From the NCBI GenBank assembly GCA_963818065.1, contig CAWFQW010000006.1, positions 204,139 through 268,138 of the forward strand: a stretch of 64,000 nucleotides of DNA, given 5' to 3'. The notes below the pieces were generated by a model, which saw only the letters and a program-made list of their open reading frames with translations, had not been told where the DNA came from and did not search any database. This DNA is from Bryobacterales bacterium (lineage in GTDB: Bacteria > Acidobacteriota > Terriglobia > Bryobacterales > Bryobacteraceae). Every line of letters starts with the position of its first letter. Position 1 is the first letter of the stretch. Positions 37,764-59,761 of this stretch are shown piece by piece. The position numbers were made by a program, and so were the translations under genes.

Positions 37764-39397
<1,634 letters not shown>

Positions 39398-39416
39398 TTT
39401 TCGTTAACATAACAAG

Positions 39417-41823: not shown

Positions 41824-41849
41824 GCGCTTGACGCGCAGGCCTCCCCGCC

Positions 41850-43979
41850 TTGATTCTTGTACAAAGGTTACTTGTGCCAATCGCGGCGCGTCTGCTCCCG
41901 TTCACATTGCTCGTCGCTGCCGGCATCGCGGGCGCGGCCCAGCAGCGCATTCCACGGCAGACGTTTCCGGCCACTGCAGCTGTACAAGGGATCGTCACCA
42001 CAGAACAGGGCCTCGGCCTCGGTGGCGTTGCGATTCTATTGCAGAACTTGACCACTGGCCGCAGCCTTTCGGCAATCACTGCGGGGGACGGCTCATTCCG
42101 CTTCTTGAATCTGGCGCCTGGTCGATATCAGGTGAAGGCGTCGCGCGATGGTTTCCTGCCCTTCGCGCAAGGCGACATAAATCTGGCCGCGGGTGACGTG
42201 TTCCCGCTGCAGTTCGCGATGGAAGCGATTCCATCGGGCTCCGAAGGCGTCCGCGAAATCCCGCGTCTGCCCGATCTCGGCCCCAAGCCTGCGGCCGCCC
42301 CCCAGCAACCCGCCGCATCGGGCCCGTATCGCAATTTACCCTCGCCGCCTCCGGCCTTGAGCGCGAGCGAGGCCAAGCCGCTATCGCCGCTGCCGACCGA
42401 CGATCAGGTCTTCAACGCCGTCCCGAATCGCTGGAACTATCCTTTCCCCGATTATCATCGCTACCCCGACGGCGAAGTCCCCTATACGAAAGGCCATTGG
42501 TACGATCCGTTCAATCTCAACAAGCTCAAAGGCGACCGGCCGATCATCGGAAACCAAACCTTCTTCGATTTCACCTTCACCAGCGACACCTTCACCGACG
42601 GCCGCCGTTTGCCGGTCGCAAGCGGCGTGAGCACGGCGAGCCCCGGTGAGACCCAGTTTTTCGGGCGCTTCGGCCAATTCCTGATGAGCGAAAACCTGGC
42701 GTTCTCCTTCGACTTGTTCCACGGCGACACGTCGTTCCGGCCAGCTGACTGGCGCATCCAGATCACGCCCGAAGTGAATATCAACTACCTGAAAGTGCAG
42801 GAAACCGGCGTCGTCAACTTCGATGTCCGCGATGGAACCACGCGGCTGGATTCGCACCTGGGTTTGCAGGAAGGCTTCGCCGAAGTGAAGCTGAAGGATC
42901 TGAGCAATCAGTTCGACTTCATCTCGCTGCGCGTGGGCATTCAGTCTTTCACCAGCGATTTCCGCGGCTTCATCTTCTCCGACCAGGAGCCCGGCGCGCG
43001 CCTGTTCGGCAACTTCGACTCCAACCGCTATCAATTCAACCTGGCCTATTTCGCCATGCTGGAAAAGGACACCAACAGCGGCTTGAATTCCATGGCTTAT
43101 CGCCAACAGCAGGTGATGATCGCCAATATCTATCGCCAGGATTTCATCAAGCCCGGTTACACGATCCAGGCGAGCTTCCATTACGACAAGGACGATCCGT
43201 CGTTTCAATACGACACCAATGATTTTCTGGTGCGCCCCGCCCCCATCGGCACAGTGCAGACGCACGCCATTCGTTCTTATTACTACGGGCTCACCGGCGA
43301 CGGCCACTTCGGAAAGCTGAATCTCACGCACGCGTTCTATCAAGTGCTGGGCCATGACAGCTTCAACGAGCTGGCCGGACGCCGCGTGGATATCAACGCG
43401 CAGATGGCCGCCGTGGAACTGTCGCTCGATAAGGATTGGCTGCGCTATCGGGTGTCGTTTTTCTACTCGTCGGGCGATAAAAATCCACGCTATGGAAGCG
43501 CACGCGGCTTCGACACCATCTTCGACAACCCGAATTTCGCGGGTGGCTTCTTCAGCCTGTGGGATCGCGAGGGCATCCCGCTCACCGGCACCGGCGTCAA
43601 CCTGGTGAATCCCGGGAGCCTGGTTCCGGATCTGCGCACCAGCAAGATCGAAGGGCAGGCGAACTACGTCAATCCCGGCTTGTTCCTATACAACGCGGGG
43701 GTGGACGTCGATCTCACGCCCAAGCTGCGCCTGTTCGTCAACGAGAATTTGCTGTTCTTCGCGCGCACCGACCCGCTGGAGCTGCTGCTGTTCCAATCCA
43801 ACATTCATACTGGCATCGGAGCCGACTCGGGCATCGGCCTTTCGTATCGTCCGCCGCTATCGGAAAATATCGTGATCACCGGCGGCGCGGATGCGCTGGC
43901 GCCATTTCAGGGCCTGCGCGATATCTCCACCAATCGAACCCTGCTCTCGGTCTTCGCGAACGTCCGCTTCCGATTCTAA
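41850..43979 (+). CDS. outer-membrane beta-barrel protein with N-terminal carboxypeptidase-regulatory-like domain
   Basis: 709-aa ORF. The signal peptide more likely begins at GTG 41874 (PIAARLLPFTLLVAAGIAGAAQQ). The CarboxypepD_reg pattern is GIVTT..G.GLGGVAILLQNLTTGRS..AITAGDGSFRFLNLAPGRYQV. The rest is a long Tyr/Phe/Asp-rich alternating sequence that ends ...VRFRF. Confidence 0.8.
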   Translation: MILVQRLLVPIAARLLPFTLLVAAGIAGAAQQRIPRQTFPATAAVQGIVTTEQGLGLGGVAILLQNLTTGRSLSAITAGDGSFRFLNLAPGRYQVKASRDGFLPFAQGDINLAAGDVFPLQFAMEAIPSGSEGVREIPRLPDLGPKPAAAPQQPAASGPYRNLPSPPPALSASEAKPLSPLPTDDQVFNAVPNRWNYPFPDYHRYPDGEVPYTKGHWYDPFNLNKLKGDRPIIGNQTFFDFTFTSDTFTDGRRLPVASGVSTASPGETQFFGRFGQFLMSENLAFSFDLFHGDTSFRPADWRIQITPEVNINYLKVQETGVVNFDVRDGTTRLDSHLGLQEGFAEVKLKDLSNQFDFISLRVGIQSFTSDFRGFIFSDQEPGARLFGNFDSNRYQFNLAYFAMLEKDTNSGLNSMAYRQQQVMIANIYRQDFIKPGYTIQASFHYDKDDPSFQYDTNDFLVRPAPIGTVQTHAIRSYYYGLTGDGHFGKLNLTHAFYQVLGHDSFNELAGRRVDINAQMAAVELSLDKDWLRYRVSFFYSSGDKNPRYGSARGFDTIFDNPNFAGGFFSLWDREGIPLTGTGVNLVNPGSLVPDLRTSKIEGQANYVNPGLFLYNAGVDVDLTPKLRLFVNENLLFFARTDPLELLLFQSNIHTGIGADSGIGLSYRPPLSENIVITGGADALAPFQGLRDISTNRTLLSVFANVRFRF

Positions 43980-44016
43980 GCTAGGGCCTTCGTGTATGAT
44001 GATTGGAACCTAAGAC

Positions 44017-44451
44017 ATGACAATTCCAGAACGATTTGGAAAAGGCATCAGCCGTCGTCAGTCGGGAATCCTTTGCCTCGCGCTGCTAATCGCGGGGCTG
44101 TTTACCGCAACTCCTGCAATCGCTCAAGGCTCAGGTTTCAAAATCGGGCCCATCGACAAAGGTTTGGTGGTGGGCGGTATCGTGGGGATTGCGGCGGTTG
44201 TAGCGGCTGCTATCGTGATCACTTACCTGGTCGTTCACAACCACGGAGCGGTCGTGGGCTGTATAGTCGAGTCCGGCGGGAAGAAAACTCTCGTTAGCTC
44301 CGACAAGAAAGTTTACTCGCTTGTTGACTCCGGCCCGCCGTTGCCCGTTGGTGAGCGTGCCAAGTTGAAAGGCCATAAATCGGGCCCGTCGTCGGCGCCC
44401 ACGTTCCAGGTCGTGAAGGTTTTGAAGGACTACGGCCACTGCCAACCTTAG
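44017..44451 (+). CDS. small membrane-anchored hypothetical protein
   Basis: 144 aa. It has a signal/anchor, a second hydrophobic helix (VVGGIVGIAAVVAAAIVITYLVV) and a roughly 70-aa C-terminal domain. It sits between the barrel gene and the giant cytochrome gene. Confidence 0.55.
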   Translation: MTIPERFGKGISRRQSGILCLALLIAGLFTATPAIAQGSGFKIGPIDKGLVVGGIVGIAAVVAAAIVITYLVVHNHGAVVGCIVESGGKKTLVSSDKKVYSLVDSGPPLPVGERAKLKGHKSGPSSAPTFQVVKVLKDYGHCQP

Positions 44452-44503
44452 GACCCCTTCTTCTAGATATCGATGACCACTCGTAGCGTTGCAATTGCTC
44501 TGA

Positions 44504-47500
44504 GTGTCAGCGGCGCTTGCGTCGCTTCTCTGCGCGCTGCTGCTCGGACAGCAATCGAGCCAATCACGCCTCGGCGAATCGCAAGAAGAGGCTGACCGCA
44601 ACAGCGTCGGCTGCGTCGCATGCCACGGCCAGACCGATTCCGCGTCGATGCACACCACGGGGACTGTTCGCTTGGGCTGTGTCGATTGCCACGGCGGCCA
44701 CGCCGGGGTCACGCCGCCCACTGGTGCCCAGAAAGGCTCGGCTGGCTATGACGAGGCCAAAAAAAAAGCGCATCCCAAACCCAGCGTCCCTGAGCTGTGG
44801 CGCAGTTCCGCCAATCCGGTTCGTCCCTTCACCGAATGGCTCAAGGAAACCAAGGAGTACATCCAATTCGTCAATCCGGGCGATCTGCGCGTGGCCGAAC
44901 AAACCTGCGGCTCCGGCGGCTGTCACGCCAAGGAAGTGCTCGCGGTCCGCACCAGCATGATGACCACCGGCGCCATGCTCTGGGAAGCGGCTCTCTACAA
45001 CAACGGCGGCTTTCCCTACAAGGACGCCCGCTTCGGCGAGAGCTATTCGCCGGACGGAGTGGCGCAACGCGTCAACACTTATCCGCCGCCGTCGCAGGAA
45101 CTAACTCGCACCAAAGGCGTGCTCCCGCACCTGGATCCGCTGGCGCGCTGGGAAGTTTCGCAGCCCGGCAATATTCTGCGCGTGTTCGAGCGGGGCGGGG
45201 GAGAGCGCTCCGAAGTCGGCATTCCCAACACTGAGGAAGATCCCGGGCGTCCCGACGTGAAGCTGAGCGAGCGCGGCCTCGGGACCGAGCTGCGGACCGA
45301 TCCGGTTTTTCTCGGGCTCCAAAAGACGCGCCTGCTCGATCCCATTCTCTCGATGCCCGGTACCAACGATCATCCCGGCGACTATCGCAACAGCGGCTGC
45401 ACGGCTTGCCACGTCATCTACGCCAACGATCGTTCGCCCATTCACTCCGGGCCCGTATGCCCAGTACGGCAATCAGGCGCACAGCGCCGAGATCGATCCC
45501 ACCATTCCGCACAACGAGTCCGGCCATCCCATCAAGCACGAGTTCACGCGCTCCATCCCCACCAGCCAGTGCATCGTGTGCCACATCCATCCCGGCACCA
45601 ACATGGTGGCGTCGTATCTCGGCTACATCTGGTGGGACAACGAAACCGACGCCGAGCACATGTATCCGAAGGAGCAGCACAATCCGTCGGATGAAGAGCG
45701 ATTCCAAGCGTGGCTCGCGAATCCGGAGAGCGCCGCCGCGCGCGGGCTCTGGAAGGATCTTTCGTTTCTCGAGAAAACCGGCAGCCCCGAGTTCAATCAG
45801 CAGCTCAAGCACACGCAGTTCGCCGATTTCCATGGCCACGGCTGGGTGTTTCGCGCCGTGTACAAGCGCGATCGCAAGGGCAACCTGCTGGATCCCGAGA
45901 GCCACGTGGTGCCTTCGGACGATAAGGACAAGTTTCAAAAATCAGTCCAGCTCCGCGACATCCATCTCGAGAAGGGCATGCACTGCACCGATTGCCATTT
46001 CGCGCAGGACAACCATGGCGACGGCAATCTCTACGGTGAGACGCGCAACGCGGTCGAGATCGATTGCGTGGATTGCCACGGCGCCATCTCGCACAAAGCG
46101 ACGCTGCGGACTTCAGCCGCGGCCGCGCCCGCCGGCGGCACCGACATCTCGTTGCTCCGCACTCCCTGGGGCCAGCGCCGCTTCTATTGGCAAGACGGAA
46201 AACTCTATCAGCGCTCCATGGTCGACAAGGACCGCGCGCCATGGGAAGTGGTGCAGGTGGTGGATACCATCACGCCCGGCAATCCGCACTACAACGAGAA
46301 GTCGCGGCTGGCCAAGACGATTCTGAAAGACGGGAACACCTGGGGCAGCGTGCCCGGCGACGAATCCACGCTGGCGCATTCCAACGAGCGCATGACCTGC
46401 TACGCCTGCCACACTTCCTGGACCACCAGTTGCTTCGGCTGCCATCTGCCGATGAGCGCAAACCGCAAGCTGCCCATGCTGCACAACGAAGGGCTGACCA
46501 CGCGCAACTACACCGCCTACAATTTCGAAGTGCTGCGCGACGACATTTACATGCTCGGCATTGACGGCACCGTCACCAAGCATCGCATCGCGCCCACGCG
46601 TTCCACCTGCGCCGTCGTCGTCAGTTCGCAGAACGCCAATCGCGACTGGATCTATTACCAGCAGCAGACGATTTCCGCGGAAGGCTTCAGCGGCTTCGGC
46701 GTTCAGCCCTTACTATCCGCACACCGTCCGCGCCACCGAAACCAAAACGTGTACCGATTGTCACGTCTCGCGCGAGGGCGACAACAACGCGTGGATGGCG
46801 CAGCTCCTGATGCAAGGGACAAATCTCGTCAATTTCATGGGACGTTACGTCTACGTGGCCGAAGGTTCCAAGGGCTTCGACGCCGTCGCCGTGGCCGAGC
46901 ATGACGATCCGCCCGCAGTGTTCGGAAGCGATTTGCAGAAGCTTGTCTACTCGAAGGACTACCAGGAAGTGGAGGAGCATCACGGCGAAATTCACGAAGC
47001 CGATCATCACGGGGGCAACGTCCTGGATCTCCAGTTGCGCGGCGAATATCTTTACGCGGCGTTGGGCAAGGACGGTTTCCGAGTCTACGATGTCGCGAAC
47101 ATCGATAACAAGGATTTCTCGGAGAAGATGACCACGGCGCCGGTATCGCCCTTGGGACAGCGGTTCTATGTGAAGACTAAGAACGCTACTGCGGTCGGTT
47201 CGCCATCGACGCTGGCCGTCGATCCCTTGCGCACCCGCATTCCAGCGAACGAAGAGCAGGCCATCGCGTTGATGTACGGATTCCTCTACGTAACCGACGC
47301 CGAAGAGGGGCTGGTGGTGATCGGCGATCCTGACCTTAAAAGCAAAGCTCCCGGCGTGCTCACGCTGCTGGACGGCAATCCTGCGAACAATTTCTTAAAA
47401 CGCGCCACAACATTTAACCCCAATAACGTCTTAAAGGGCGCTCGCCGGATCACTATCGCCGGAACCTATGCCTACATCCTTTGTGATCGCGGCTTGGTAG

Positions 47501-48189
47501 TGGTCAACATCGCCAATCCGCTCGCGCCCAAAGTGGAGTCTGAAATCGGGGCGCCCGATTTGGTCGATGCGGAAGGCATCGCCATCCAGTTCCGCTACGC
47601 TTTTGTCGTGGATCTCCAGGGACTGAAGGTTCTGGATGTCACCTCGCTCGCGCACCCGCGCGTGGTACAGGGCGCGAGTGTTCCGCTTGACGACGCCCGC
47701 AACATCTACATCGCTCGAACGTACGCCTACGTCGCCGGCGGCAAGCAGGGCCTGGTGATCATGGATGTGGAGCGCCCCGAGCACCCGCGCATCGAACAGG
47801 TATTCACCGCGGAGGGCGCCCTGAACGACACGCGCGATGTGAAGCTCGGCATGACCGCCGCCAGCGCATTCGCTTATATCGCCGACGGCCAGAACGGCAT
47901 GCGCATCGTGCAGTTGTTCGCGCCCAACGACACGCCCAATTACCTCGGCTTCAGCCCGAAGCCCACGCCCAGGCTGATCGCCACCTATCGCACCAAAGGC
48001 CCGGCGCTCGCGGTCTCCAAAGGCATCGATCGCGACCGCGCCGTCGATGAAGACGGCAATCAGCTCTCGGTCTTCAATCGCCGCGGCTCACGTCCCTTCA
48101 ATCGCGAGGAAGCACAACGCCTGTATCTAAAGAACGGGCAGGTGTTCACTGTGACGAACGATCCGCCGGGCCCGGCGAGCAACAAGTAG
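44504..48189 (+). pseudogene. giant multiheme c-type cytochrome fused to an LVIVD-repeat beta-propeller (about 1200 aa), 2 frameshifts
   Basis: ORFs 44504..45694, 45576..46904 and 46561..48189 are colinear. Heme motifs are CVACH, CVDCH, CGSGGCH (CX4CH), CTACH, CIVCH, CTDCH, CVDCH, CYACH, CFGCH and CTDCH. The C-terminal roughly 450 aa carries repeats of the G[LF]xV[IVL]DV..P..P type ([51 protein letters not shown]). The shifts are near 45454 and 46700. A possible upstream ATG at 44473 lies in another frame. Confidence 0.8.
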
Positions 48190-48194
48190 CGCGA

Positions 48195-49442
48195 CTATTC
48201 CGCCAACTGTTTGAGGCTATATTTCCCGACGACCGGCTTTTCCTTGCTCCAATCGTGATACGCGTGGCATTCGAAGCAGCGCGCTTCCGCCGCGTCGGGT
48301 CCAGCGCGATGGCATTGCCGGCAGGTCTGAATACCAGGGATCAGCACGTCGGACGTCTCTTGGCTATCCTTCGCCTTCGCGTGACAGGACGCGCATTGCA
48401 GCATCTGATGCGCTTGGTGATCGAAATTCGCGTGCGGCAGCCATCGCGCTGTAATCGCGGCCTTCGCGACCACCGGCAAAATGCTGGGGCCGTCAAGATA
48501 ACTCAAGGTATGGCATTCCTTGCACGATTTTCGCCACAGCAGCAACTGCGCGTCGGTCATGCGCTGCTGGACCCACTCGGCGGCGCTGCGCGCGGGCGGT
48601 TGCGGAGGACGGGTCGGCAGTCGCTTATCAGGTTCGTCTACTAAAGGAATCTCCGCCGGATGCGCCGCGATGTATGCAGTCAGCTTCGCGAACACGAAAT
48701 CGTAGACGACTTTCGGATCCTTGTGCGGCGCCGACTCGCTGAAGCGCCTATCAAATTGCAGCGGGTGGCATGAGGCGCAATGCTTCTCGTAATTGACCGG
48801 CGTCATGTATGGGCGACCGGACGAACCGGACGTCTGGTGGCAATCGGCGCACTTCAACTGCACCGGCCCGGTCGGACCGCGTAGGTCCTCTTTCAGATGC
48901 ACGCGATGGTTGAACTTGATGGTCCCGGGATCCGTCGCGCCCGGCCGCAGCGGGGCGAATTCAGGATGGCTGCGGTCGAATGCACGAATGCTCGAAGCGA
49001 ATTTCGATGTCCCGTGCGTGGTCTTCAAATCCGCATGGCACTGCGTGCAGGCCGCATCGCCGGTGCTTGCCAGCCGAAACGCACCCTGGTGCTCCACATG
49101 GCAGCTTGAGCAGGATGGCGTGAAGGTTTGGTCCGCGTGATGGATCGGGCCATCGTGACACGCCAGACACGCCTGGTCCGTCGCGCTTTGACGATAGCTC
49201 GCATCGGAAACGTGACATACTACGCACTTCTGGCCAAGCAGCGCGTGCGCGTGAGCGAGCGGCCCGGCGTTGTAGGGCTTCGGACTGCCGACCAGCGCGA
49301 ACCATCCCAGCCAGACTAGGCCAACCAGCACAAACGCGCCTGACAGAATCCGCCGCCAGCGTGGAATACCGCGGAGCGCTTTGAAATAGTTTAAATCGAT
49401 CCGCTGCGCGAGCTTCTTGGTGGTGCGTGTGCGTCCCGCCAT
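48195..49442 (-). CDS. membrane-anchored decaheme c-type cytochrome (cytochrome c3-family-like)
   Basis: 415 aa. One N-terminal TM helix (ILSGAFVLVGLVWLGWFALVG). Ten CxxCH motifs: CVVCH, CLACH, CSSCH, CTQCH, CADCH, CASCH, CKECH, CASCH, CRQCH, CFECH. Confidence 0.9.
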   Translation of the reverse strand: MAGRTRTTKKLAQRIDLNYFKALRGIPRWRRILSGAFVLVGLVWLGWFALVGSPKPYNAGPLAHAHALLGQKCVVCHVSDASYRQSATDQACLACHDGPIHHADQTFTPSCSSCHVEHQGAFRLASTGDAACTQCHADLKTTHGTSKFASSIRAFDRSHPEFAPLRPGATDPGTIKFNHRVHLKEDLRGPTGPVQLKCADCHQTSGSSGRPYMTPVNYEKHCASCHPLQFDRRFSESAPHKDPKVVYDFVFAKLTAYIAAHPAEIPLVDEPDKRLPTRPPQPPARSAAEWVQQRMTDAQLLLWRKSCKECHTLSYLDGPSILPVVAKAAITARWLPHANFDHQAHQMLQCASCHAKAKDSQETSDVLIPGIQTCRQCHRAGPDAAEARCFECHAYHDWSKEKPVVGKYSLKQLAE

Positions 49443-49445
49443 GCC

Positions 49446-50306: not shown

Positions 50307-50315
50307 CGCGCCTCG

Positions 50316-52469
50316 CTAGTTTCTCCGCGGCTGGTTGGCAAGAGGCGTGCCCACCCAGCGGAAAAATTCGTTGGGCTCCACGCGATGCGCCGCGTCATGC
50401 GGGCACGCATACACGCAACTGGGCTCGGCGAGATCGGTGCATAGATCGCACGAGGTCGCCTTCTGTTTGACCACGGCCATCTGGCGTCCCGCGTTCGCGG
50501 GATCGTTTTCCATCACCGTGAACGGATGCATGTTGATATTTCCGTACGGGCAATTCTTCGCGCACAGGCCGCATCCGATGCACCAATTCTCGATGATCAC
50601 TTCGAGCGAATTGCGCCGGCGAATCGACCCGACCGGACAACCGATCATGCACAACGGATCCCTGCAATGGCGGCAGGACGTGGCCACCAGATATTTGTCG
50701 AAACGCTGGCCTTCGCGGATCAGCCGGGTTACTCCATCGTGAGCATCGGCACACGCGCGCACGCAGGCATCGCAACGCGTACAGCGCTCCAGATCCATCA
50801 CCAGCAGGCTCTGCGCTTCCATCAATCCTTGGGCCAGGAACGAATCCAGTGGCATGCTGGTCGCGGTAGCCAGGCGCTGCCGGTTCTGCTCTTGCCGCTC
50901 GCGCACCAGGGTCTCCAGGCTCCGGCGCACTTCAGGGAATCGCTCCACCATGCGGTGAAATTCCTCGCCGTGAATGCGCACCAGCTCCACGTGATCGAGC
51001 GCTGTGCAGGTGGCCGTTCGGATTCCGCCACCCAGCAATCCGATTTCGCCGAAGTATCCGCCGCGTCCCAGGTACGCCAGCACCAACTCGCCGCCAGGAT
51101 GCCCTTCCGACACTTTCACGAACCCGAGGCGAATCACGTAGAAGCTGTCCGCGATGTCGCCCTGCCGGCAAATCACGTCGCCCTTGGTGTAGCGCACCAG
51201 CTCCACCTTGTCGCGCAAGGTGTCGATGAACTCCGGATCCAGCGATGCAAACATAGGAACGCTGCGTAGATGATCGTCGAGTGCGCGGCGGCGATAGTTG
51301 GCGTCGAGCTGGGCTTTTAGTGTTTTGTTGCGCTGGATAATATCGAGCACGTTGCGCAGCATTTCAAACATCACGCAGTCGGTGGCCGCGCGTACCGTTG
51401 CCGAGCGCGGATACAGACTCATGCATGTCATTTCGCCGAATAGATCGCCGGGGCCGAGCGTGGCCACCGGATGGTCATAGGGCAAATCCACGGGCGCGTC
51501 AATGGGAATGGTTTCGCGCCGGCCCTCTTCGGAGCGGCTTTCCTGCTGGCGTCCAAATAGGCGGCTGGTCATCTTGCCGAGGAAACCAGTACCGTGACGT
51601 TCGGTATTCACGTGCGCCATCGGCGTCGAGAGAAACACTTCGGCTTGGCCTTCCAGGATGTAAAACGCCGTGGAACCGTACTCGCCCTCGCGGCAAACGA
51701 TCTCACCCTTGCGGAAGTGCCGGCGAACGACGGCATTCTTATTCAATTCGAGAAACGTTCCCGAGACCTTCTGGAAGTAAGAGAGCCGCTGCAGTTCGTC
51801 GATGTCCACCGGCTCGCCGGGCAGAACCGTTTTCACCACACTCTTGTTGGTGAGGGCGCCGGTGGGGCACGACACCATGCACTCGCCGCAGGACACGCAG
51901 GAGGAATTGCCCATCGGCAGATTGGTGTCGAACGCGATGCCCGCGAGGAAGCCCTTACCGCGTCGCCCCAATACATCGTTATGGCGGATTTCGTCGCAAC
52001 CGCGAATGCAGCGATCGCACAAAATGCAGGCCTCGTGATCAACCGCGATCACCAGCGACGAATTGTCCTGGCCGCGTGCGGAGATTTTGCGCGGGAAACG
52101 CGGTTCGCCGATGCCTTCGAGGCGCGCCAGAGTTTCCAATTCGCAGTCGTTCGATTGCCGCTGGCGAGCGCAGGGGCTGGGATGATCCGCCATCAGCATT
52201 TCCACGAGCGTCCGGCGTGCACGTAACACTCGCTCGGAATTGGTGCGCACCACCATATTGTTCTCGGCGGGCCGCACGCACGAGGCTGCCAGTACCCGAG
52301 CTTTCTCTAGGTCAACCACGCACACGCGGCACACGCCGACGGGCGTTTCGTTCTGCTGATGGCACAGCGTGGGGATTGCGATGCCGTGGATGCGCGCCGC
52401 GTCGAATACGCTGGTTCCTTCGGGCACCGAAATCGCTTGGCCGTCGATGCTGAGTTGAACGTCGCTCAT
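50316..52469 (-). CDS. Fe-S protein: NuoG-N-terminal-like [2Fe-2S]/[4Fe-4S] domains + two cNMP-binding domains + four-cluster ferredoxin domain
   Basis: ATG at 52469 forms an ATGA overlap with the upstream stop; ORF 50316..52493 begins at a TTG. N-terminus: C-x11-C-x2-C-x13-C, CILCDRCIRGC and CVSCGECMVSCP. Middle: two CAP-type cNMP domains (FGEMTCMSLYPRSATVRA; YFGEIGLLGGGIRTATCTA). C-terminus: CTRCDACVRAC, CRHCRDPLCMIGCP, CIGCGLCAKNCP and CDLC-x7-CVYACP. Confidence 0.85.
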   Translation of the reverse strand: MSDVQLSIDGQAISVPEGTSVFDAARIHGIAIPTLCHQQNETPVGVCRVCVVDLEKARVLAASCVRPAENNMVVRTNSERVLRARRTLVEMLMADHPSPCARQRQSNDCELETLARLEGIGEPRFPRKISARGQDNSSLVIAVDHEACILCDRCIRGCDEIRHNDVLGRRGKGFLAGIAFDTNLPMGNSSCVSCGECMVSCPTGALTNKSVVKTVLPGEPVDIDELQRLSYFQKVSGTFLELNKNAVVRRHFRKGEIVCREGEYGSTAFYILEGQAEVFLSTPMAHVNTERHGTGFLGKMTSRLFGRQQESRSEEGRRETIPIDAPVDLPYDHPVATLGPGDLFGEMTCMSLYPRSATVRAATDCVMFEMLRNVLDIIQRNKTLKAQLDANYRRRALDDHLRSVPMFASLDPEFIDTLRDKVELVRYTKGDVICRQGDIADSFYVIRLGFVKVSEGHPGGELVLAYLGRGGYFGEIGLLGGGIRTATCTALDHVELVRIHGEEFHRMVERFPEVRRSLETLVRERQEQNRQRLATATSMPLDSFLAQGLMEAQSLLVMDLERCTRCDACVRACADAHDGVTRLIREGQRFDKYLVATSCRHCRDPLCMIGCPVGSIRRRNSLEVIIENWCIGCGLCAKNCPYGNINMHPFTVMENDPANAGRQMAVVKQKATSCDLCTDLAEPSCVYACPHDAAHRVEPNEFFRWVGTPLANQPRRN

Positions 52470-54154
52470 GCGCGCACCTCGCGCATGGGACAAACGCCTT
52501 CCGGACAGCGGTGCTCGCGAACGTGCGCGTCCAATTCATCGCGGAAATGCAGCAGGACCGAGCTGAGCGGTGAGTGCGCGAATTGGCCGAGCCCGCAGAT
52601 GGACGTCAGCTTCAGCGCCTCGGTGAGGTCGTCGATCAGCGCCATATCGGCGGAAGATCCTTGGCCGCGCGTCCAGCCGGTCAGGATGTCCACCATCTTC
52701 TGCGAGCCCGTGCGGCACGGGACGCACTTGCCGCAGGATTCGTTGCGGAAGAATTTCACCGCGTTCAATGCCATGTCGAGCATGCATCGCCCTTCGGCGC
52801 AGACCACAATAGCGCCGGAGCCGAGCATCGATCCGACTGCGGCCAGTGATTTGAAATCCAGTCGCACGTCTACCATCGAAGCCGGCAAGTATCCCGACGA
52901 AGGCCCAGACGGAGCGAAAGCCTTCAACTGTTTGCCGTCCACGATGCCGCCTGCCAGGTTGAAGATCACCTCCGACATCTGCAGACCCATCGGGATTTCG
53001 AACACGCCTGGACGGCGCACGTCCCCGCTGACGCCGACGAACTTCAGTCCGGCCGCGCCGCCTTGTCCCTGGGCTTTGTACCACTCCACGCCGTTTACCA
53101 AAATCTGCGGCACATTGGCGAAGGTCTCGACGTTGTTCAGCGCGGTCGGCTTATTGAACACGCCCTGGTGCACGGGGAAAGGCGGTTTATTGCGAGGCTC
53201 GGCGCGCTTGCCTTCGATGGCTTCGATGAGCGCGCTCTCTTCACCGCAAATGTATCCGCCCGGGCTCACGAACAGCTCCAGGTCGAACGTGAGGCCCGAT
53301 CCCAACACGCTCGGCCCAAGAATCCCCGACGCGTAACAGCGCTCGATCTCTTCGTGCAGAACCTTCTCTTGCGCGTGATACTCGTGCCGGATATAAAGGA
53401 TACCTTTTTCGGCGCCAGTCACCAGTCCAGCGATGATCATGCCCTCAATCACCAGGTTCGGGAGATTGCCCATGATGAAACGATCCTTAATGGTGCCAGG
53501 CTCGCTCTCATCGGCGTTGCAGACCACGTATTTTTCGGGACCCGGCGCCCGGCGAACGGCCTCCCACTTCATGCCGGTGGGAAATCCTGCGCCGCCCAGT
53601 CCGCTCAACCCGCTAGCCTTCAATTGCGCGATCGTGCCGTCCCAATCGCGCGTGGCCGCCAGCATTCGCAAGGCACCGTAGCGCTCGGCGCTCAGGTACG
53701 GGTCGGATGTCAGATCCGCCGTCTTTTCTTCGGCGGACATTTCGGGAAGCTCGTTCCCGCCTAGGGCCGTCAGCACCAGCGCTTCGGCCTGAGCCACAGT
53801 GACGCCGCGATAAATATGATCGTTGATCGAAACCGCCGGAGCGCCGTCGCACTGTCCGAGGCATGAGATGTCGCGGATGGCAACGTCTTCCCCGCTCATC
53901 CCGCGGAAGCGTTGTTCCAAGCCGGCGCGAAGATTGGCGGCGCCCCGCAGATGGCACGACATGTCCGCACAGACGCCCGCAGCCACTCTGGGCGGCCGCG
54001 TCAGATGGAAGTGGGGATAGAAATCGGCGACCCCGTGAATGCGATACAAAGGCGTGTTGGTACGTTCGGACAGCGCTGCTAACTGTTCGCCCGGTAGATA
54101 ACCGTACTGACTCTGAATCGCTCTGAGGTCGTCAAAAATCAACGGTTCGTACAT
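52466..54154 (-). CDS. fused NuoE-like/NuoF-like NAD(P)H-oxidising flavoprotein
   Basis: Intact 562-aa ORF. NuoE-like part: CADMSCHLRG...CLGQCDGAPA (thioredoxin-like 2Fe-2S). NuoF-like part: GLGGAGFPTGMKW, CNADESEPGT, YICGEESALIEAIEG and ESCGKCVPCR (FMN, NADH and 4Fe-4S motifs). Confidence 0.9.
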   Translation of the reverse strand: MYEPLIFDDLRAIQSQYGYLPGEQLAALSERTNTPLYRIHGVADFYPHFHLTRPPRVAAGVCADMSCHLRGAANLRAGLEQRFRGMSGEDVAIRDISCLGQCDGAPAVSINDHIYRGVTVAQAEALVLTALGGNELPEMSAEEKTADLTSDPYLSAERYGALRMLAATRDWDGTIAQLKASGLSGLGGAGFPTGMKWEAVRRAPGPEKYVVCNADESEPGTIKDRFIMGNLPNLVIEGMIIAGLVTGAEKGILYIRHEYHAQEKVLHEEIERCYASGILGPSVLGSGLTFDLELFVSPGGYICGEESALIEAIEGKRAEPRNKPPFPVHQGVFNKPTALNNVETFANVPQILVNGVEWYKAQGQGGAAGLKFVGVSGDVRRPGVFEIPMGLQMSEVIFNLAGGIVDGKQLKAFAPSGPSSGYLPASMVDVRLDFKSLAAVGSMLGSGAIVVCAEGRCMLDMALNAVKFFRNESCGKCVPCRTGSQKMVDILTGWTRGQGSSADMALIDDLTEALKLTSICGLGQFAHSPLSSVLLHFRDELDAHVREHRCPEGVCPMREVRA

Positions 54155-54196
54155 TATATCGTTACGGCTCTGATACCCTGTCTAAGTACTCGACCG

Positions 54197-55501
54197 ATGA
54201 AACCGGCACCGGGCATCCAACTGCTTCTGGGCGCGCTCCTGGCGGTCCGCTGCCTGATGGCCGCCGATAGCGCGGAGTCTTCGAAATACACCGGACCAGG
54301 CTCCTGCAGTTCCCCCAGTTGCCACGGCGGCGTACAAGCGCGCGATCAGACCACAGTGCTGCAGAACGAGTACAGCACCTGGGTGGTGCGCGATAAACAC
54401 GCGCATGCATTTTCGAATCTCACCAATCCGGTTGGGACACGCATCGCCAAAATCATGGGACTGCCGAGTCCCGACACGGCGCCGCGCTGCCTGGCTTGCC
54501 ATGCGCTGGATGTTCCGGCCGATCAGCGCGCCCGCACCTTCGACCTCACCGACGGCGTGGGATGCGAGAACTGCCACGGCCCAGCGTCGGCATGGCTGGG
54601 GCCGCACACCACGCGCGGCTGGAAGTACGAAAAATCGCTCGAGTCGGGACTGTACGATACACGCGATCTGGTGAAGCGCTCCGAAAAATGCCTCAGCTGC
54701 CACCTTGGGACGCCGGAAAAGATGGTGGATCACGAACTGATCGCCGCGGGCCATCCCGATCTGTACTTCGAGCTTGATTCGTTCATGTCGGTGATGCCGC
54801 CGCATTGGAAGGAAGTGGACACCGACCCGTGGTTCGCGGTCCGCGCTATGGCTGTGGGGCAAGCCGTGCAGTTGCGTGAGCAGCTTAAGCGCGTGGCGCG
54901 CGAGTCGCAAGGCGGCATCTGGCCGGAATACGCGGAGCTGGATTGCTTCGCTTGTCACCACAACCTGACTGCCGCGAAAGACAGCTGGCGGCAGGAGCGA
55001 GGGTACACCGGCCGGCGTCCCGGCAATCCGCCGTTCAACCTGTCGCGCTACGTGGTGTTCAAGCACGTGATCCAGGACTCCGATCCCGGGGCCGTTCGCG
55101 ATCTCGAGGCTGGGATCAAGCAGGTCTACGCGGGCGTCACCGCGCTGAATTCGGATCGCCGTCAAGTGGCCATGGAAGCAACCGGCGCGTCGGAGCTGGC
55201 GGGGAGATTGGCGCAACGTTTGAACGGGATGAAATTCGATCCGCCTCAAACGTTGCGTTTGTTGAAGAGCATCGCCGCCGATGGCGACGGAATCGCCGAG
55301 CAAGGTGAGCGCGCGGCCGAGCAAGCCACCATGGCGCTGGATTCGCTGTTCATCGCGTACTCGAAGAACGACAAGCTCGGCAACGAGGCGCAGATTCGAG
55401 CCGGCATTAACGGACTGTTCCAGCAACTGGACGATCCGTCGTTGTTCAACGGCTTCAAGTTCGCCGCGGCAATGAAGAATCTGAGTTCGTTGCTGCCATA
55501 G
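54197..55501 (+). CDS. periplasmic multiheme c-type cytochrome (cytochrome c554-family-like) with helical C-terminal domain
   Basis: 434 aa with a signal peptide. Heme motifs are CSSPSCH (CX4CH), CLACH, CENCH, CLSCH and CFACH. Confidence 0.85.
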   Translation: MKPAPGIQLLLGALLAVRCLMAADSAESSKYTGPGSCSSPSCHGGVQARDQTTVLQNEYSTWVVRDKHAHAFSNLTNPVGTRIAKIMGLPSPDTAPRCLACHALDVPADQRARTFDLTDGVGCENCHGPASAWLGPHTTRGWKYEKSLESGLYDTRDLVKRSEKCLSCHLGTPEKMVDHELIAAGHPDLYFELDSFMSVMPPHWKEVDTDPWFAVRAMAVGQAVQLREQLKRVARESQGGIWPEYAELDCFACHHNLTAAKDSWRQERGYTGRRPGNPPFNLSRYVVFKHVIQDSDPGAVRDLEAGIKQVYAGVTALNSDRRQVAMEATGASELAGRLAQRLNGMKFDPPQTLRLLKSIAADGDGIAEQGERAAEQATMALDSLFIAYSKNDKLGNEAQIRAGINGLFQQLDDPSLFNGFKFAAAMKNLSSLLP

Positions 55502-55509
55502 GCCGAGCC

Positions 55510-57048
55510 ATGCCGTTAGCGCGAACCATCTCCATGTTGACGTTAGCGGCCTGGATCTGTCTTGCGCAGGCACCGCCGCGTCCGCCGATTCATCACCGTC
55601 CGCTTCCGGACCCACCGTCGCTGGTCGATCCCGTGCTGTTGACGTCCGCTGATGTCGCGAGAGTGGTGGAAGTTGCCGCATCATCCGTGAATTCCGATGC
55701 GATGGTGATCGCGGTCACGGATCGCCAGGGCAATATTCTCTCGATTTATCAAAAACCGAACGCGCCGGCCACGGCGCTCGCCAATTTTGGAGTGCAGGCG
55801 GACACGCAAGAAGTAGCCGTAGCGCTCGCGCGGACTGCGGGGTTCTTCAGCAACGATCAAGCGCCGCTTTCCTCGCGGACCGTGCGCTACATCAGCGGCA
55901 TTCACTTTCCGCCAGGAATCAATTTTACGGCCAACGCCCCGCTGTACGGCATCGAGAACACCAATCGCGGCTGCCCCTTCAACGCCGCTTACATCCTGGG
56001 CCAGGAGTTTCCGGCAGCGCGTTCCATCGATGGGTCGACCACCGGCCTCGGCATTCTTACCGGAAAAGCGAATCTCTACGACAGCGATCCCATCGCAGTG
56101 AATCCAGGCGGAGTTCCACTGTACAAACAAGGCGTGCTGGTTGGTGGAGTCGGCGTGGCAGGCGTCGCGGCCGATGTCGCGGAGTTCGCGGCGTTCTCGG
56201 GAGCGGTTGGTGCGGGTTTCGGTGCGAATCCAGCGCCGCCAGGCGTGGTCATCATTAATGGCATCGCGGTGCCCTTCGTCAATCAGACGACTCGGCCCGC
56301 TGGATATGGCGCGGGGTCAGCGGACGGGATGTATGTGTTGGGTCCGCTCGCGAGTCTGAAAGCTCCACCCGAGGGTAATCTGGTTGCGCCGCGCGCGGGT
56401 CCCATTGGCGGCCTGACCGCGGACGAAGTGGAGAGCATCGTTAACGCGGCCACAGCCGAAGCCAATCTCACACGCGCCGTGATCCGATTGCCGATTGGCG
56501 CGCGGACGCGCATGACGATCGCAGTCGCCGATCTGGACGGCACGATCATCGCGCTGTATCGTATGGCCGATGGCACCGTGTTCAGTATCGACGTCGCGGT
56601 GGCGAAAGCGCGCAACGTGATTTTCTTTAGCGGACCTAATCGTACGGCCAGTGATTTGCCGGGTGTGCCGATGGGCACCTCGGTTACTAATCGGACCATA
56701 GGCTTCGGCGGCCAGCCGATTTATCCGCCGGGAATCGACGGCTCGGGGCCAGGTCCTTTTTTTCAGCTCTATCAATTCGACACGCTGAATCCGTGCACGC
56801 AAGGATCGCAGTCGGCGAATCCGAATCAAAACGGCATCGTCTTTTTCCCCGGCTCGCTTCCGCTGTATAAGAACGGAGTGCTGGTGGGTGGCCTGGGCGT
56901 GAGCGGCGATGGCGTGGATCAAGACGATTTCGTGACTTCCGCGGGTGCGGCCGGATTCGATGCGCCCACCAACATCCAAGCCGATCAAATCATCGACCAA
57001 GGCGTGCGGCTGCCGTACCTCAAGTTTCCGCGCAACCCTACGGATTGA
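55510..57048 (+). CDS. secreted protein with two tandem GlcG/HbpS-like (DUF336) domains
   Basis: 512 aa with a signal peptide. Two copies of the DUF336 signature are present (GGVPLYKQGVLVGGVGVAGV... and GSLPLYKNGVLVGGLGVSGDGVDQDD), each preceded by a T..DV..VV......A......MVIAV.D..G-type segment. Confidence 0.8.
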   Translation: MPLARTISMLTLAAWICLAQAPPRPPIHHRPLPDPPSLVDPVLLTSADVARVVEVAASSVNSDAMVIAVTDRQGNILSIYQKPNAPATALANFGVQADTQEVAVALARTAGFFSNDQAPLSSRTVRYISGIHFPPGINFTANAPLYGIENTNRGCPFNAAYILGQEFPAARSIDGSTTGLGILTGKANLYDSDPIAVNPGGVPLYKQGVLVGGVGVAGVAADVAEFAAFSGAVGAGFGANPAPPGVVIINGIAVPFVNQTTRPAGYGAGSADGMYVLGPLASLKAPPEGNLVAPRAGPIGGLTADEVESIVNAATAEANLTRAVIRLPIGARTRMTIAVADLDGTIIALYRMADGTVFSIDVAVAKARNVIFFSGPNRTASDLPGVPMGTSVTNRTIGFGGQPIYPPGIDGSGPGPFFQLYQFDTLNPCTQGSQSANPNQNGIVFFPGSLPLYKNGVLVGGLGVSGDGVDQDDFVTSAGAAGFDAPTNIQADQIIDQGVRLPYLKFPRNPTD

Positions 57049-58653
57049 GCGCGTTCTCCGCGGCGCGCTTTTTTGCCAACTGGCGGAAAATTTCGCCGAA
57101 CGCCGGCATGCTGGAGCGCAGCTTGTCGAAATCCCGCTTGGGAATGATCAGCACATTCATCGCGGTGCGGGCTTGAATCGTGGCGTTGCGGCTCTGATCG
57201 GCAAGCAGCGCCATTTCGCCGAAATGGTCGCCGACTATCAGCGTCGCGAGAAGCCTGCGCTCGCCGTTTTCTTCGCGCCACACTTCGCACTCGCCTTCCT
57301 CGATCACATAGACGCTATCGCCCAGATCGCCTTGCCGGAAAACCACGTCGCCCGGCTTGGAAGTGCTGGTTCTGAATTGCGGACGTGGGATCGAGCTTGG
57401 TCTCGGCGAGATCGGGCGGGAACAGCAGGCGCAGCGCTCCAATCGGTCGCGATGCGGGTCTTGCGATTCAGCCCCGGCATCTTCATCAGATAAATGCAGC
57501 GCCATAGCATCCAAGCCAAAAAGCCCGAGAGTTTCACGCCCAGGATCTGGGCAACGGCCGCTCCATGGCCGAGAGAACTGAGCGTACCCAAACCTTCGAA
57601 CATGAACTCGGCGCGCGCGCCTCCACGGATAGCGGCGGCGATGTTGGTTGCGGCCGTGGCGGCTTCTCGAATGGCGTGCTGCGCGGTGGGCGGAGCTTCC
57701 TTGCCTGAAACAGTTTTCACCACCGCACAATCGCCGAGGGCCCACACCTGACCCTCGTGGTCCTTCAGTTCGAGACCGGTGTTGGTCAGCAGTTTGCCTT
57801 TTTCTTTCGCGCAATTCAGCTTCTGGATCACCGGGGTCAGCGTGGAAGGCACGGTACACACGATGGTCTTGCATGCGATCTCAGCGCCCGATTTCAAGAT
57901 GGCTTTTTCCGACGTCGCAGCTACCAGCCGGTCTTCCAGAATGATCTCGACTCCACGTTTGCGCAGCGTCTTTTGAGCGAACAGCGCCAGCGGCTCGGCC
58001 ATTTCCTGAAGAATGCGGTCGCGCGAATGAACCAGCACCGCGCGATGCGGCTGATCGCGGAGGCGCAGATAATTTTTCTTGACTGCCCGCACGAAGTCGT
58101 TCAGCTCGGCGATCACCTCTACGCCTGAAAATCCTCCGCCGCCCACCACAAAGGTGAGTAGCTTACGCCGCAGCTCGGGATCTTCCTCGACGTCCGCTTC
58201 CTCGAGCGTTCGAATCACGTGATTGCGCAACACCATCGCGTCGGCCAGCGTCTTGAAGGGCATCGCGTTTTCGAGCATGCCCGGCATTCCATAGAAGTTC
58301 GTAACATTGCCGAGCGCGATCACCAGATAGTCGTAATGAATCTGGAGCTGGCGCGGGCGAAACCCAGGGCTGACCGTGACCACGTGGTTCTGAAGATCGA
58401 TGTCTTCAATCTCGCGAGTCACCAGGTTTGTGCGCGGGCAGAGGCGGCGGATGGGCGATACGACGTTAGCCAAGCCGAGGGAGCCGGAGATTACTTCCGA
58501 GAGCATGGGCTGATAGACCCAATAGTTCTCGCGATTGACCAGCGTGATGGCGGCTTCTTCAGGGCGCAGGAGCTTTTCGAGATAGCGGGCCGTATAGACG
58601 CCGGCGAATCCTCCGCCCAGGATGACGATTTGTTTCGCGGCCCGGGCGTCCAT
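57038..58653 (-). pseudogene. type II NADH dehydrogenase (NDH-2) fused to a C-terminal cNMP-binding domain, 2 frameshifts
   Basis: ORF 57304..58653 gives the NDH-2 body (ILGGGFAG, VVGGGGFSGVE, WALGDCA). A third frame reads LLFPPDLAETKLDPTSAIQNQHF. The tail of ORF 57038..57874 gives KPGDVVFRQGDLGDSVYVIEEGECEV...GDHFGEMALLADQSRNATIQA. The shifts are near 57432 and 57360. The 3' end overlaps the convergent GlcG-like gene by 11 nt. Confidence 0.8.
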
Positions 58654-59526: not shown

Positions 59527-59695
59527 TTCCTGATCTTTGTCGTCGATGGTGCCGCTCCCTTGGGTTATCCATGGCAAGGCGTTGATCGGCGACTCATCCT
59601 CGAGTATACAGCACCGACCTGCGAAGGGCGGCCAAGGAGTAACCCAAAGAATTGCATGGTTCCAGGGCAAGTCTATCTGCTTGAAAAGATTCCAC

Positions 59696-59724
59696 TTGAC
59701 GGTTGTATTGCGATTGGTGATAAT
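59696..59724 (+). promoter_or_regulatory. candidate sigma70 promoter of the isc operon
   Basis: TTGACG (59696-59701), 17 nt, GATAAT (59719-59724). It lies about 38 nt upstream of the iscR ATG, in an A+T-richer spacer. Confidence 0.4.
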
Positions 59725-59761
59725 GATATAGGACTGTTCCGGTCGGAGATCTGGATTCCGA

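Follow-up and report, generated by a model that had tools for sequence, protein, structure and literature searches.

The question raised by this locus is where a bacterium would send its electrons, and by what route, when genes for heme, iron-sulfur (Fe-S) and flavin proteins follow one another directly beside a gene for an outer-membrane barrel. The genes, ten in all, occupy positions 41850–58653 of the window, by which is meant the whole 64,000-nucleotide stretch analyzed here, from an uncultured soil acidobacterium of the Bryobacterales (GenBank assembly GCA_963818065.1, contig CAWFQW010000006.1, positions 204,139 to 268,138 of the forward strand). A first reading of the letters and their open reading frames (ORFs), called the sequence-only reading below, had described one redox island with about 25 heme c motifs, analogous in logic to porin-cytochrome conduits. 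All ten of the genes it listed are present, with labels backed by Pfam and NCBIfam searches and by ORF listing and translation, and the heme c motifs number exactly 25 (10 in a giant cytochrome, 10 in an anchored decaheme cytochrome and 5 in a c554-like cytochrome). The single island survived only in part: synteny is strong and crosses phyla, but what is conserved is not one fixed block of ten genes but two modules with a strong though breakable tendency to be neighbors, together with lineage-specific additions. The gene content is consistent with a chain, gated by cyclic nucleotides, that would export electrons from NAD(P)H to the periplasm and deliver them to a terminal oxidoreductase in the periplasm that has a channel in the outer membrane at its service; this reading is offered tentatively, and its chances seem to us to fall just short of even.

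The comparison set comprised 160 related loci and two sphingomonad megaplasmids. A scan for the giant cytochrome, limited to one genome per GTDB species, gave 80 loci, against which the window proteins were searched by tblastn, and their hosts belonged to Bryobacterales, Terriglobales, Acidoferrales, Vicinamibacterales, Blastocatellia, Chloracidobacterium, Binatia and Tepidisphaerales; a module-B-centered set was made up of metagenome contigs found from the protein that carries Fe-S and cyclic nucleotide monophosphate (cNMP) domains. Module A consists of the barrel (41850–43979, forward strand) and the giant cytochrome (44504–48189, forward), usually accompanied by a tandem HbpS/GlcG-like protein (55510–57048, forward) and the c554-like cytochrome (54197–55501, forward). 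Wherever there was enough sequence (74 of 74 loci), the giant had the barrel gene immediately upstream, usually overlapping or abutting it (by about 20 nucleotides in the called genes of L081/L082), and the GlcG-like gene was the third near-universal partner; it lies immediately upstream of the barrel gene in Terriglobales, Acidoferrales, Blastocatellia, Chloracidobacterium and Tepidisphaerales, including loci from which module B was missing. Module B consists of four tightly packed or overlapping genes, kept in the same order in every locus with enough sequence: a NuoE-NuoF fusion (NuoEF; 52466–54154, reverse strand), which opens the operon and overlaps the following gene, the Fe-S/cNMP protein (50316–52493, reverse), a His-rich membrane protein with five transmembrane (TM) helices (49446–50306, reverse), and the anchored decaheme cytochrome c (48195–49442, reverse), which is the last gene and always follows that of the membrane protein. 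The two modules lay no more than 10 kb apart in 33 of 45 loci with full flanks; they met tail to tail, with module B within 50 base pairs (bp) of the giant, in 19 loci and were otherwise separated by 2–6.5 kb. Seen from the other side, the c554-like gene, which is divergent from NuoEF in the window, adjoined NuoEF in 40 of 43 module-B-centered loci, and the giant was found in 21 of the 36 module-B-centered metagenome loci that reach at least 4 kb past the operon. The pairing of A and B recurs in a locus from Tepidisphaerales (L078, Planctomycetota) and on a megaplasmid of Sphingobium herbicidovorans. The genes that lie between the modules were considered as further components and rejected, since they are mutually unrelated (GH63, CarboxypepD_reg repeats, Zn-ADH, TPR, PFK). 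In Chloracidobacterium sp. (L074, 1998–5885) the GlcG-like, barrel and giant genes stand with three other multiheme cytochromes (9, 9 and 4 CxxCH) and an unassigned protein of 268 amino acids in place of the NuoEF, Fe-S and cytochrome b operon, apparently a different electron supply to the same terminal unit.

The composition of module B would tie the locus to pyridine nucleotides. The NuoE-NuoF fusion, with a 2Fe-2S cluster, an FMN/NAD(P)H site and a 4Fe-4S cluster predicted from its domains, matched Complex1_51K (144 bits), NADH_4Fe-4S (92 bits) and 2Fe-2S_thioredx (85 bits), all well above the Pfam cut-offs, and scored 446 bits against the NuoF model TIGR01959, under the equivalog cut-off of 558; by these profiles it is a NuoEF-type module and not complex I itself. 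The Fe-S/cNMP protein begins with a HoxU/NuoG-like region (2Fe-2S and 4Fe-4S), continues with three cNMP domains and ends in a ferredoxin module of the 2x[4Fe-4S] type. Its match to cNMP_binding (PF00027) reached 132 bits over three stretches, canonical phosphate-binding cassettes of the form FGE...R[ST]A occur at residues 352 (RSA) and 481 (RTA), and invariant Cys columns are seen in the alignment of its homologues. No catalytic domain was detected in it by Pfam or NCBIfam, so that electrons entering this subunit must go elsewhere, and the co-operonic cytochrome b-like protein is the obvious acceptor. In that five-helix protein, two His pairs spaced 14 residues apart, H81/H95 in TM3 and H265/H279 in TM5, are invariant among 26 orthologues, as is H259, and a cytoplasmic helical domain of about 120 residues is kept as well. 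Two His pairs on two TM helices, 13–14 residues apart, form the classical ligand pattern of di-heme cytochromes b. Among the 26 orthologues there were sub-threshold Pfam matches to DUF4405 (15 of 26, best E 9e-5), Ni_hydr_CYTB (two) and Ferric_reduct (two), the Sphingobium orthologue matched cytochrome b561 (E 1.4e-4), and nothing meaningful came from a profile search of the PDB in which the membrane protein was the query. The protein is thus predicted to be a transmembrane di-heme cytochrome b, with heme b binding inferred from this pattern. The anchored decaheme cytochrome, with 10 CxxCH motifs and one N-terminal TM helix at residues 32–50, matched the Pfam families Cytochrome_C7, Paired_CXXCH_1 and c3, and reached only 26 bits against the MtrA/DmsE model TIGR03508, the cut-off of which is 192.

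The strongest argument that pyridine nucleotides are coupled to periplasmic cytochromes comes from replacement of the input by non-orthologous proteins around a constant core. A tblastn search of PLSDB found full-length giants, with 43–47% identity and 98% coverage, on megaplasmids of sphingomonads, namely S. herbicidovorans MH, eleven other Sphingobium strains and Sphingopyxis indica MC4; the window giant and the Sphingobium giant are 46% identical over about 1200 amino acids. The cluster of S. herbicidovorans MH (B6S01_RS18410-18455) has a first operon with a c554-like cytochrome, an HbpS-like ‘heme-binding protein’, a barrel of 612 amino acids that lacks the immunoglobulin (Ig)-like domain, and the giant, and a second, convergent operon with a Pyr_redox_2/3 protein that also carries two cNMP domains and 2x[4Fe-4S], a cytochrome b561-like protein, and a multiheme cytochrome with an FHA domain and a TM helix. 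Three forms of input can be recognized. NuoEF with a NuoG-like N-terminus serves the window, most Acidobacteriota and Tepidisphaerales; in the Terriglobales-type loci L033/L035 both NuoEF and the NuoG-like domain are missing, the Fe-S subunit is reduced to three cNMP domains and 2x[4Fe-4S], and an intact NDH-2::cNMP fusion of 529 amino acids directly follows the c554-like gene; and in Sphingobium the input is a fused Pyr_redox domain. What stays constant is cNMP plus 2x[4Fe-4S], the membrane protein, and the anchored multiheme. This makes it plausible that the NDH-2::cNMP gene at the edge of the cluster in the window (57038–58653, reverse strand, convergent on the c554-like and GlcG-like genes) has a lineage-limited place in the system. 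Its matches to Pyr_redox_2 (133 bits) and NDH2_C (34.6 bits) are above cut-off, there is a C-terminal cNMP_binding match, and the cassette position reads RNA; N-terminally truncated copies in L016, L008 and L018 keep an open frame through the junction of NDH-2 and cNMP domains, and the gene was found in 5 of 45 module-A-centered loci and in 0 of 80 module-B-centered loci. Two other features of the Sphingobium region were recorded. On plasmid pMSHV (L163, 17733–19532) the protein that corresponds to the anchored multiheme has at its N-terminus a cytoplasmic domain of the FHA-like type (Yop-YscD_cpl), which hints at phospho-threonine-dependent regulation, either replacing cNMP control or beside it, and two-partner-secretion transporters of the ShlB/FhaC/HecB type are present on both flanks (L163, 1–6533 and 25993–27672) together with a hypothetical protein of 2092 amino acids. 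Plasmid matches from Gloeothece were irrelevant, being confined to the propeller region of Calx-beta proteins.

The most conserved component of the system is the giant cytochrome, about 1230 amino acids long in the window, with a ten-heme N-terminal domain and a C-terminal beta-propeller of the LVIVD type. Across 12 complete loci its median identity was 77%, as against 59–60% for the two carrier cytochromes, and with its frames stitched into one query it found at least 8000 homologues, the best of them 73–92% identical, about 1240 amino acids long and all unnamed; the heme core alone fell into 297 clusters at 50% identity (E<1e-30). The N-terminus has a Sec-type signal peptide and no lipobox. 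Nine of the heme motifs are CxxCH and one is CX4CH (CGSGGCH); this third motif, at about 44900, is CX4CH in most orthologues (CGSGGCH, CGTSGCH) and CXXCH (CGNCH) in others, which is natural variation in the spacing of heme attachment. An AlphaFold2 (AF2) model had a predicted template-modelling score (pTM) of 0.80, with predicted local distance difference test (pLDDT) values above 90 in the propeller, and Foldseek matched the propeller fold to AztD, BtuG and cd1 nitrite reductase; a Foldseek search with the whole model was swamped by generic propeller matches, and the fold of the heme domain was not classifiable. A PDB sequence search found nothing, and a PDB profile search gave a weak two-heme match to the heme 4–5 module of NrfA and octaheme nitrite reductase (ONR; E 4e-4). 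When the giant was tested as an NrfA or octaheme nitrite reductase, the motif scan gave CxxCH motifs and the one CX4CH, with CxxCK not specifically reported, and membership of that superfamily was not supported. Against the ExtM model NF040943 it scored 81 bits in three local stretches (E 4.5e-23), where the curated equivalog cut-off is 800, so that it would be a remote relative of ExtM in part of the heme domain only and no ExtM equivalog. NCBIfam gave no match of the giant to TIGR03507 (OmcA/MtrC) or to MtrA/DmsE (TIGR03508), and some of its homologues have weak, sub-threshold matches to MtrC/MtrF domains. Given its length of 1240 amino acids, its low heme content, the fused propeller, the non-lipoprotein signal and the highest conservation in the system, the giant is tentatively read as an enzyme; these features would suit a catalytic end point supplied by its own solute channel better than a wire of hemes inside a porin sheath. 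The LVIVD protein of Tenderiales has no relation to cytochromes.

The barrel that accompanies the giant has a signal peptide, a CarboxypepD_reg domain of the Ig-like type, a Pro-rich linker, a conserved pre-barrel segment and a barrel of about 18 predicted strands that ends in RFRF. At E<=0.01 Pfam matched only its N-terminal region, as CarboxypepD_reg with a sub-threshold SdrD_B match over the same part; neither an NCBIfam match nor any Pfam barrel family was found, MtrB/PioB (PF11854) included, and a PDB profile search matched the N-terminal Ig-like domain alone. More than 4000 homologues were found, and the median identity across the 12 complete loci was 63%. The AF2 model placed 18 long strands over residues 237–708 with a pLDDT of 54, probably low because of a shallow alignment (71–94% identity), and in a Foldseek search this model was most similar to AlgE, OprD/Occ and chitoporin (E about 1e-10), with MtrB outside the top 50. 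A TonB-dependent or SusC-like receptor, of the 22-strand barrel class, was considered and rejected, there being no Plug or TonB_dep_Rec match in Pfam or NCBIfam; by comparison, a genuine OMP_b-brl_4 receptor in L076 was easily detected. One part of the barrel protein deserves separate mention, a near-invariant segment at residues ~186–235 (window ~42405–42555) between the Pro-rich linker and the first strand, with the pattern RW..P.Y.RY...PY..GHWYDPFN.NKLKGD.PI.G. The segment was left unplaced by AF2 and is kept in Sphingobium, where the Ig-like domain has been lost; it could be a plug or a docking element.

The genes that remain differ in how widely they are shared. The c554-like cytochrome has a signal peptide, four CxxCH motifs and one CX4CH (CSSPSCH), and a helical C-terminal half; it matched Cytochrome_C554 in Pfam, and its best PDB match was the c554 of Nitrosomonas (E 2e-5). 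The GlcG-like protein, also with a signal peptide, carries the HbpS/GlcG domain (DUF336, PF03928) twice, at 71.6 bits against a cut-off of 25. Its earlier label as a member of a heme-binding family was right as to the family, but the nearest solved relatives, which differ in the ligands they bind, are EfgA, PduO-C and NahX, with one ‘extracellular heme-binding protein’ at E 0.13, and for this protein ‘heme-binding’ would be a family name only; the ligand of EfgA is formaldehyde. A small protein between barrel and giant (44017–44451, forward strand), with a signal or anchor helix and a second TM helix, was found by tblastn over the related loci in the window and its closest relative (L016) alone, and is taken as a lineage-specific insert, since barrel and giant abut or overlap in most genomes and leave no room for it.

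Put together, these components suggest the following chain. The four products of module B, namely NuoEF, the Fe-S/cNMP protein, the di-heme cytochrome b and the anchored decaheme, would assemble into a single complex that spans the membrane. Oxidation of NAD(P)H would take place at the flavin mononucleotide (FMN) of NuoF, or at the flavin adenine dinucleotide (FAD) of a substitute input, and electrons would pass along the Fe-S chain of the subunit with cNMP domains to the two b hemes, which would take them over the membrane to the periplasmic decaheme with no quinone step required. The three cyclic-nucleotide-binding domains would gate this flow, which is otherwise dissipative, and a path that dissipates energy would account for such tight control by cyclic nucleotides. 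The soluble c554-like pentaheme would shuttle electrons from the decaheme to module A, where the decaheme/propeller giant would act as terminal oxidoreductase, assisted by the DUF336 (HbpS/GlcG-like) protein, and the channel, of about 18 strands, would let the oxidant in or hold the giant beneath the outer membrane. As a guess, the oxidant might be a diffusible or colloidal extracellular compound (chelated Fe(III), quinone-like humics or an oxyanion), used as an auxiliary sink when oxygen is limiting. Outward flow is favored as it would be redox-downhill and aided by the membrane potential. In a hydropathy scan NuoEF and the Fe-S/cNMP protein had neither signal peptide nor TM segment and are predicted to be cytoplasmic, with signal or anchor helices in all the other proteins, and this agreement of predicted localization with the chain counts in its favor. 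Redox proteins in the cytoplasm, inner membrane and periplasm, with possible exposure at the cell surface, had been anticipated by the sequence-only reading; the first three compartments and the outer membrane are borne out, but no analysis places any component on the cell surface. For several steps, namely heme b binding, docking of the Fe-S protein on cytochrome b, direction of flow, and the periplasmic location and catalytic role of the giant, we infer rather than observe. Confidence is correspondingly uneven: that module B links NAD(P)H to periplasmic cytochromes is held with more confidence than the chain as a whole, and any particular terminal substrate with much less. A bolder formulation would have module B as a new quinone-independent, cNMP-gated NAD(P)H:periplasmic-cytochrome-c oxidoreductase that feeds a new family of decaheme/propeller enzymes; with a channel and a DUF336 partner, this family would be common throughout Acidobacteriota, the dominant phylum of soils, and would have spread horizontally to Planctomycetota and to sphingomonad megaplasmids; this is possible, though we regard it as rather doubtful.

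Several observations weigh against this interpretation. The cytochrome b assignment depends on the His pattern and on Pfam matches that are below threshold, and the membrane pair could act instead as a quinol oxidase of the CbcL type, to which the cytoplasmic proteins would be only loosely attached. The propeller of the giant has no invariant His, Cys or Met, and neither a catalytic heme nor a site for a substrate was recognized in the protein. With a pLDDT of 54 the barrel model is poor, and both the strand count and the likeness to AlgE and OprD are tentative. Module A lacks module B within 10 kb in 12 of the 45 full loci, and many module B loci have no module A nearby. Finally, the cluster in the window contains four single-base insertions, and if they are real the system is dead in this organism.

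The alternative that survives best, although we consider it unlikely, is a true trans-outer-membrane porin-cytochrome conduit, in which the barrel carries or anchors the giant for reduction of insoluble Fe(III), Mn(IV) or particulate humics at the cell surface. In every genome translational coupling joins the barrel gene to one for a decaheme protein, the fold of the propeller matches that of BtuG, which sits at the cell surface as a lid over an outer-membrane barrel, some giant homologues show the weak MtrC/MtrF-domain matches already mentioned, and the hosts are peat and soil bacteria, in whose habitats insoluble acceptors are common. Beta-propeller proteins also accompany porin-cytochrome clusters elsewhere, as NHL proteins do in D. 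ferrophilus (as cited in bioRxiv 10.1101/2022.05.06.490989) and as a propeller does in the EET1 cluster of Acidobacteriota discussed below. These likenesses are outweighed by the absence of any MtrB/PioB match, by a model of about 18 strands that would be too narrow to sheathe a heme rod, by the Sec-type, non-lipoprotein signal of the giant, and by its low heme density of 10 hemes in 1240 amino acids. Nor does its conservation suit a conduit, for the giant is conserved like an enzyme and it is the carrier cytochromes that diverge fastest. The presence of the system in sphingomonads points the same way, these being, to our knowledge, aerobes that are not known for metal respiration. The analogy with porin-cytochrome conduits drawn from the letters alone was therefore probably mistaken, with an AlgE/OprD-like model of about 18 strands in place of a 26-strand MtrB and a giant that resembles an enzyme, but the underlying view of an envelope-spanning redox pathway was right.

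A second alternative is that the modules are independent neighbors, module A being a self-contained periplasmic enzyme with its channel, fed by whatever cytochromes the host possesses, and module B serving other periplasmic acceptors. This would explain why the barrel-giant pair stands alone among housekeeping genes in one genome (L081/L082), why Sphingopyxis has the first operon only (c554, GlcG, barrel and giant), why Chloracidobacterium pairs module A with three different multihemes, and why 15 of the 36 module-B-centered loci show no giant in the available sequence, and it is favored also by the full loci in which module B is not near. It would not account for an adjacency that survives rearrangements and unrelated insertions across orders of Acidobacteriota, Planctomycetota and Alphaproteobacteria, which is not expected by chance, nor for the c554-like gene that bridges the modules, adjoining NuoEF in Acidobacteriota and lying within the module A operon in sphingomonads. 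Independence accordingly seems to us distinctly unlikely, and an electron-export chain that joins both modules is preferred.

The insertions raise a third alternative, that this is a decaying cluster of pseudogenes in which four frameshifts are real. The giant and the NDH-2::cNMP gene, which had been reported as genes and are present, are each read in three frames in the window, a break that the sequence-only reading did not report. Alignment with L016, a collinear Bryobacterales metagenome-assembled genome (MAG) from palsa soil with 87–93% nucleotide identity over 40468–58209, located 1-bp insertions at about 45449 and 46698 in the giant and at about 57354 and 57437 in NDH-2::cNMP. The insertions at 45449, 46698 and 57354 each duplicate a neighboring G, as would be expected of basecalling or polishing errors, but the C at 57437 repeats no neighbor. 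The intact orthologues measure about 1240 amino acids (giant) and 529 amino acids (NDH-2::cNMP), and over the 44 codons on each side of the shifts the window sequence remains about 92% and about 72% identical to them, respectively, with no in-frame stop within 44 codons of any of the four shifts. The other eight genes of the region are uninterrupted. Genes unrelated to the system also look split in the window: a GT2 glycosyltransferase (58559–59778, reverse strand) extends over at least two overlapping ORFs, and a lactate permease (37644–40366, forward) matches only the first 100 of 522 profile positions and is followed by unassigned ORFs, which suggests further apparent frameshifts and a sequence-wide problem with insertions and deletions. 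With orthologues intact, flanking coding sequence undamaged and other window genes apparently split as well, the four insertions are probably errors of assembly or basecalling, and decay of the cluster is improbable.

The least likely alternative is reverse flow, in which the giant would draw on a periplasmic or extracellular donor (for instance Fe(II), Mn(II), reduced humics or a reduced compound of sulfur or nitrogen) and electrons would run inward to NAD(P)+ or the respiratory chain, for although NuoEF-type modules work reversibly in other enzymes, the c554-like and NrfA-like modules have relatives among the proteins of nitrogen-oxidizing pathways and sequence alone fixes no direction, transfer from c-heme to NAD(P)+ would, on bioenergetic grounds, be redox-uphill and against the membrane potential, and no proton-pumping or bifurcating partner to supply the energy coupling is found among the domains of the cluster.

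By every family test applied, the cluster belongs to no Mtr, Pcc or Ext system. It shares with Mtr and Pcc (Shewanella MtrCAB; Geobacter OmbB-OmaB-OmcB and Ext) a barrel gene beside a decaheme gene, with periplasmic and inner-membrane multihemes nearby, and it would likewise move electrons outward through the envelope. It has no homology, however, to MtrB/PioB, MtrA/DmsE or OmcA/MtrC, the modeled barrel would have about 18 strands instead of 26, and the giant is four times the length of MtrA, is fused to a propeller, is not a lipoprotein and is highly conserved. The extHIJKLMNOPQS cluster of G. sulfurreducens encodes a porin-like ExtI, the 12-heme ExtM, the 10-heme ExtN and cytochrome b/Rieske (PMC5877670), and the likeness here lies in a porin-like channel of the solute type that goes with large multihemes and a membrane b-type cytochrome, and in a giant that, like ExtM, is unusually conserved among the cytochromes of its host. 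Differences from Ext are that a rhodanese ExtH, a selenoprotein ExtKL and a Rieske protein are all missing from the cluster in the window, that ExtM has no propeller, and that Ext has no NAD(P)H module. Tmc and Hmc of sulfate reducers, and CbcL-type cytochromes of Geobacter, resemble module B in joining a periplasmic multiheme c to a membrane cytochrome b that links the periplasm to cytoplasmic redox reactions, and Tmc/Hmc also have a cytoplasmic Fe-S protein in the same operon, but in place of HdrD/CCG there is here a NuoEF-type flavoprotein and a HoxU-like Fe-S protein with three cNMP domains, and no family-level homology was detected for the membrane subunit. The route proposed, from pyridine nucleotide to flavin to two stacked b hemes to an outside acceptor, is that of the NOX, ferric-reductase and MsrQ proteins; two orthologues of the membrane protein have the weak Ferric_reduct matches and Sphingobium the fused FAD/NAD-type domain, whereas here the system is multi-subunit with an Fe-S chain between flavin and hemes, the membrane protein has five TM helices and another arrangement of His, and all family matches are sub-threshold. 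Domains with c hemes are also fused or complexed with a propeller in periplasmic redox enzymes such as cd1 nitrite reductase, hydrazine synthase and quinohemoprotein dehydrogenases, from which the giant differs in its LVIVD-type propeller without invariant His, Cys or Met and in its ten hemes, which are far more. The logic of the cluster may therefore be compared, by analogy, with a Tmc/Hmc/CbcL-like complex that uses a NOX-like route and is joined to a channel-multiheme pairing of the ExtI/ExtM kind.

Two extracellular electron transfer (EET) clusters have been described for Acidobacteriota: EET1, with an MtrB-like porin, a separate NHL propeller and a 13-heme OmcE-like protein, and EET2, with an MtrC/DmsE/MtrB-like set and a TsdA-like tetraheme (Fiorito et al. 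2026, bioRxiv 10.64898/2026.05.27.727921). Host phylum and habitat are the same, both have a syntenic barrel and multihemes, and EET1 has a beta-propeller protein, but neither has an LVIVD-decaheme fusion, a CarboxypepD_reg barrel, NuoEF or cNMP proteins. The identity of our cluster with EET2 was considered and rejected on the gene content given in that study. Literature searches turned up no account of the LVIVD-decaheme family or of the operon of cNMP/Fe-S protein, cytochrome b and multiheme, which is no proof of absence.

Elsewhere in the window, an amino-acid permease (40501–41823, forward) shares its strand with the barrel and stops 27 bp upstream of it, an adjacency common only to the window and L016 (97% identity) and not kept elsewhere. 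Rfam found no riboswitch or other RNA over the whole window, and scans for promoter and terminator consensus sequences performed no better than on shuffled sequence. Other redox genes are a DUF1552 (HXXSHH) and DUF1592/1588/1585/1587/1595 (PSCyt/PSD) pair with a cbb3-type cytochrome c motif (15326–19112, reverse), of the ‘Planctomycete cytochrome’ kind, and the catalytic subunit of a molybdopterin oxidoreductase with an N-terminal 4Fe-4S domain (3844–5907, reverse), about 36 kb from the cluster. With a GAF-GGDEF-EAL protein (9408–11534, forward), an FHA-GAF-SpoIIE phosphatase (25711–27261, forward) and the cNMP domains of the cluster, the window is rich in second-messenger signaling proteins. 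An ORF at 63058–63834 (reverse) has a match to the Pfam family ‘NAD-GH’; as this family is known for false antisense ORFs where a genome is rich in GC, the ORF is probably no genuine gene.

The gene set described here is abundant and strongly constrained, yet it is annotated merely as ‘hypothetical’ or ‘multiheme cytochrome’ and is absent from the EET clusters that were recently reported from peat Acidobacteriota. In peat and acidic soils Bryobacterales and Terriglobales are dominant, and the fate of their electrons at low oxygen matters for carbon turnover. The occurrence of the cluster on megaplasmids of cultured sphingomonads makes the system testable by genetics and biochemistry, which is rare for findings from MAGs. 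If the proposed chain is true, these bacteria would possess a direct route from NAD(P)H to the periplasm that bypasses quinones and is controlled by cyclic nucleotides, together with a new terminal multiheme enzyme.

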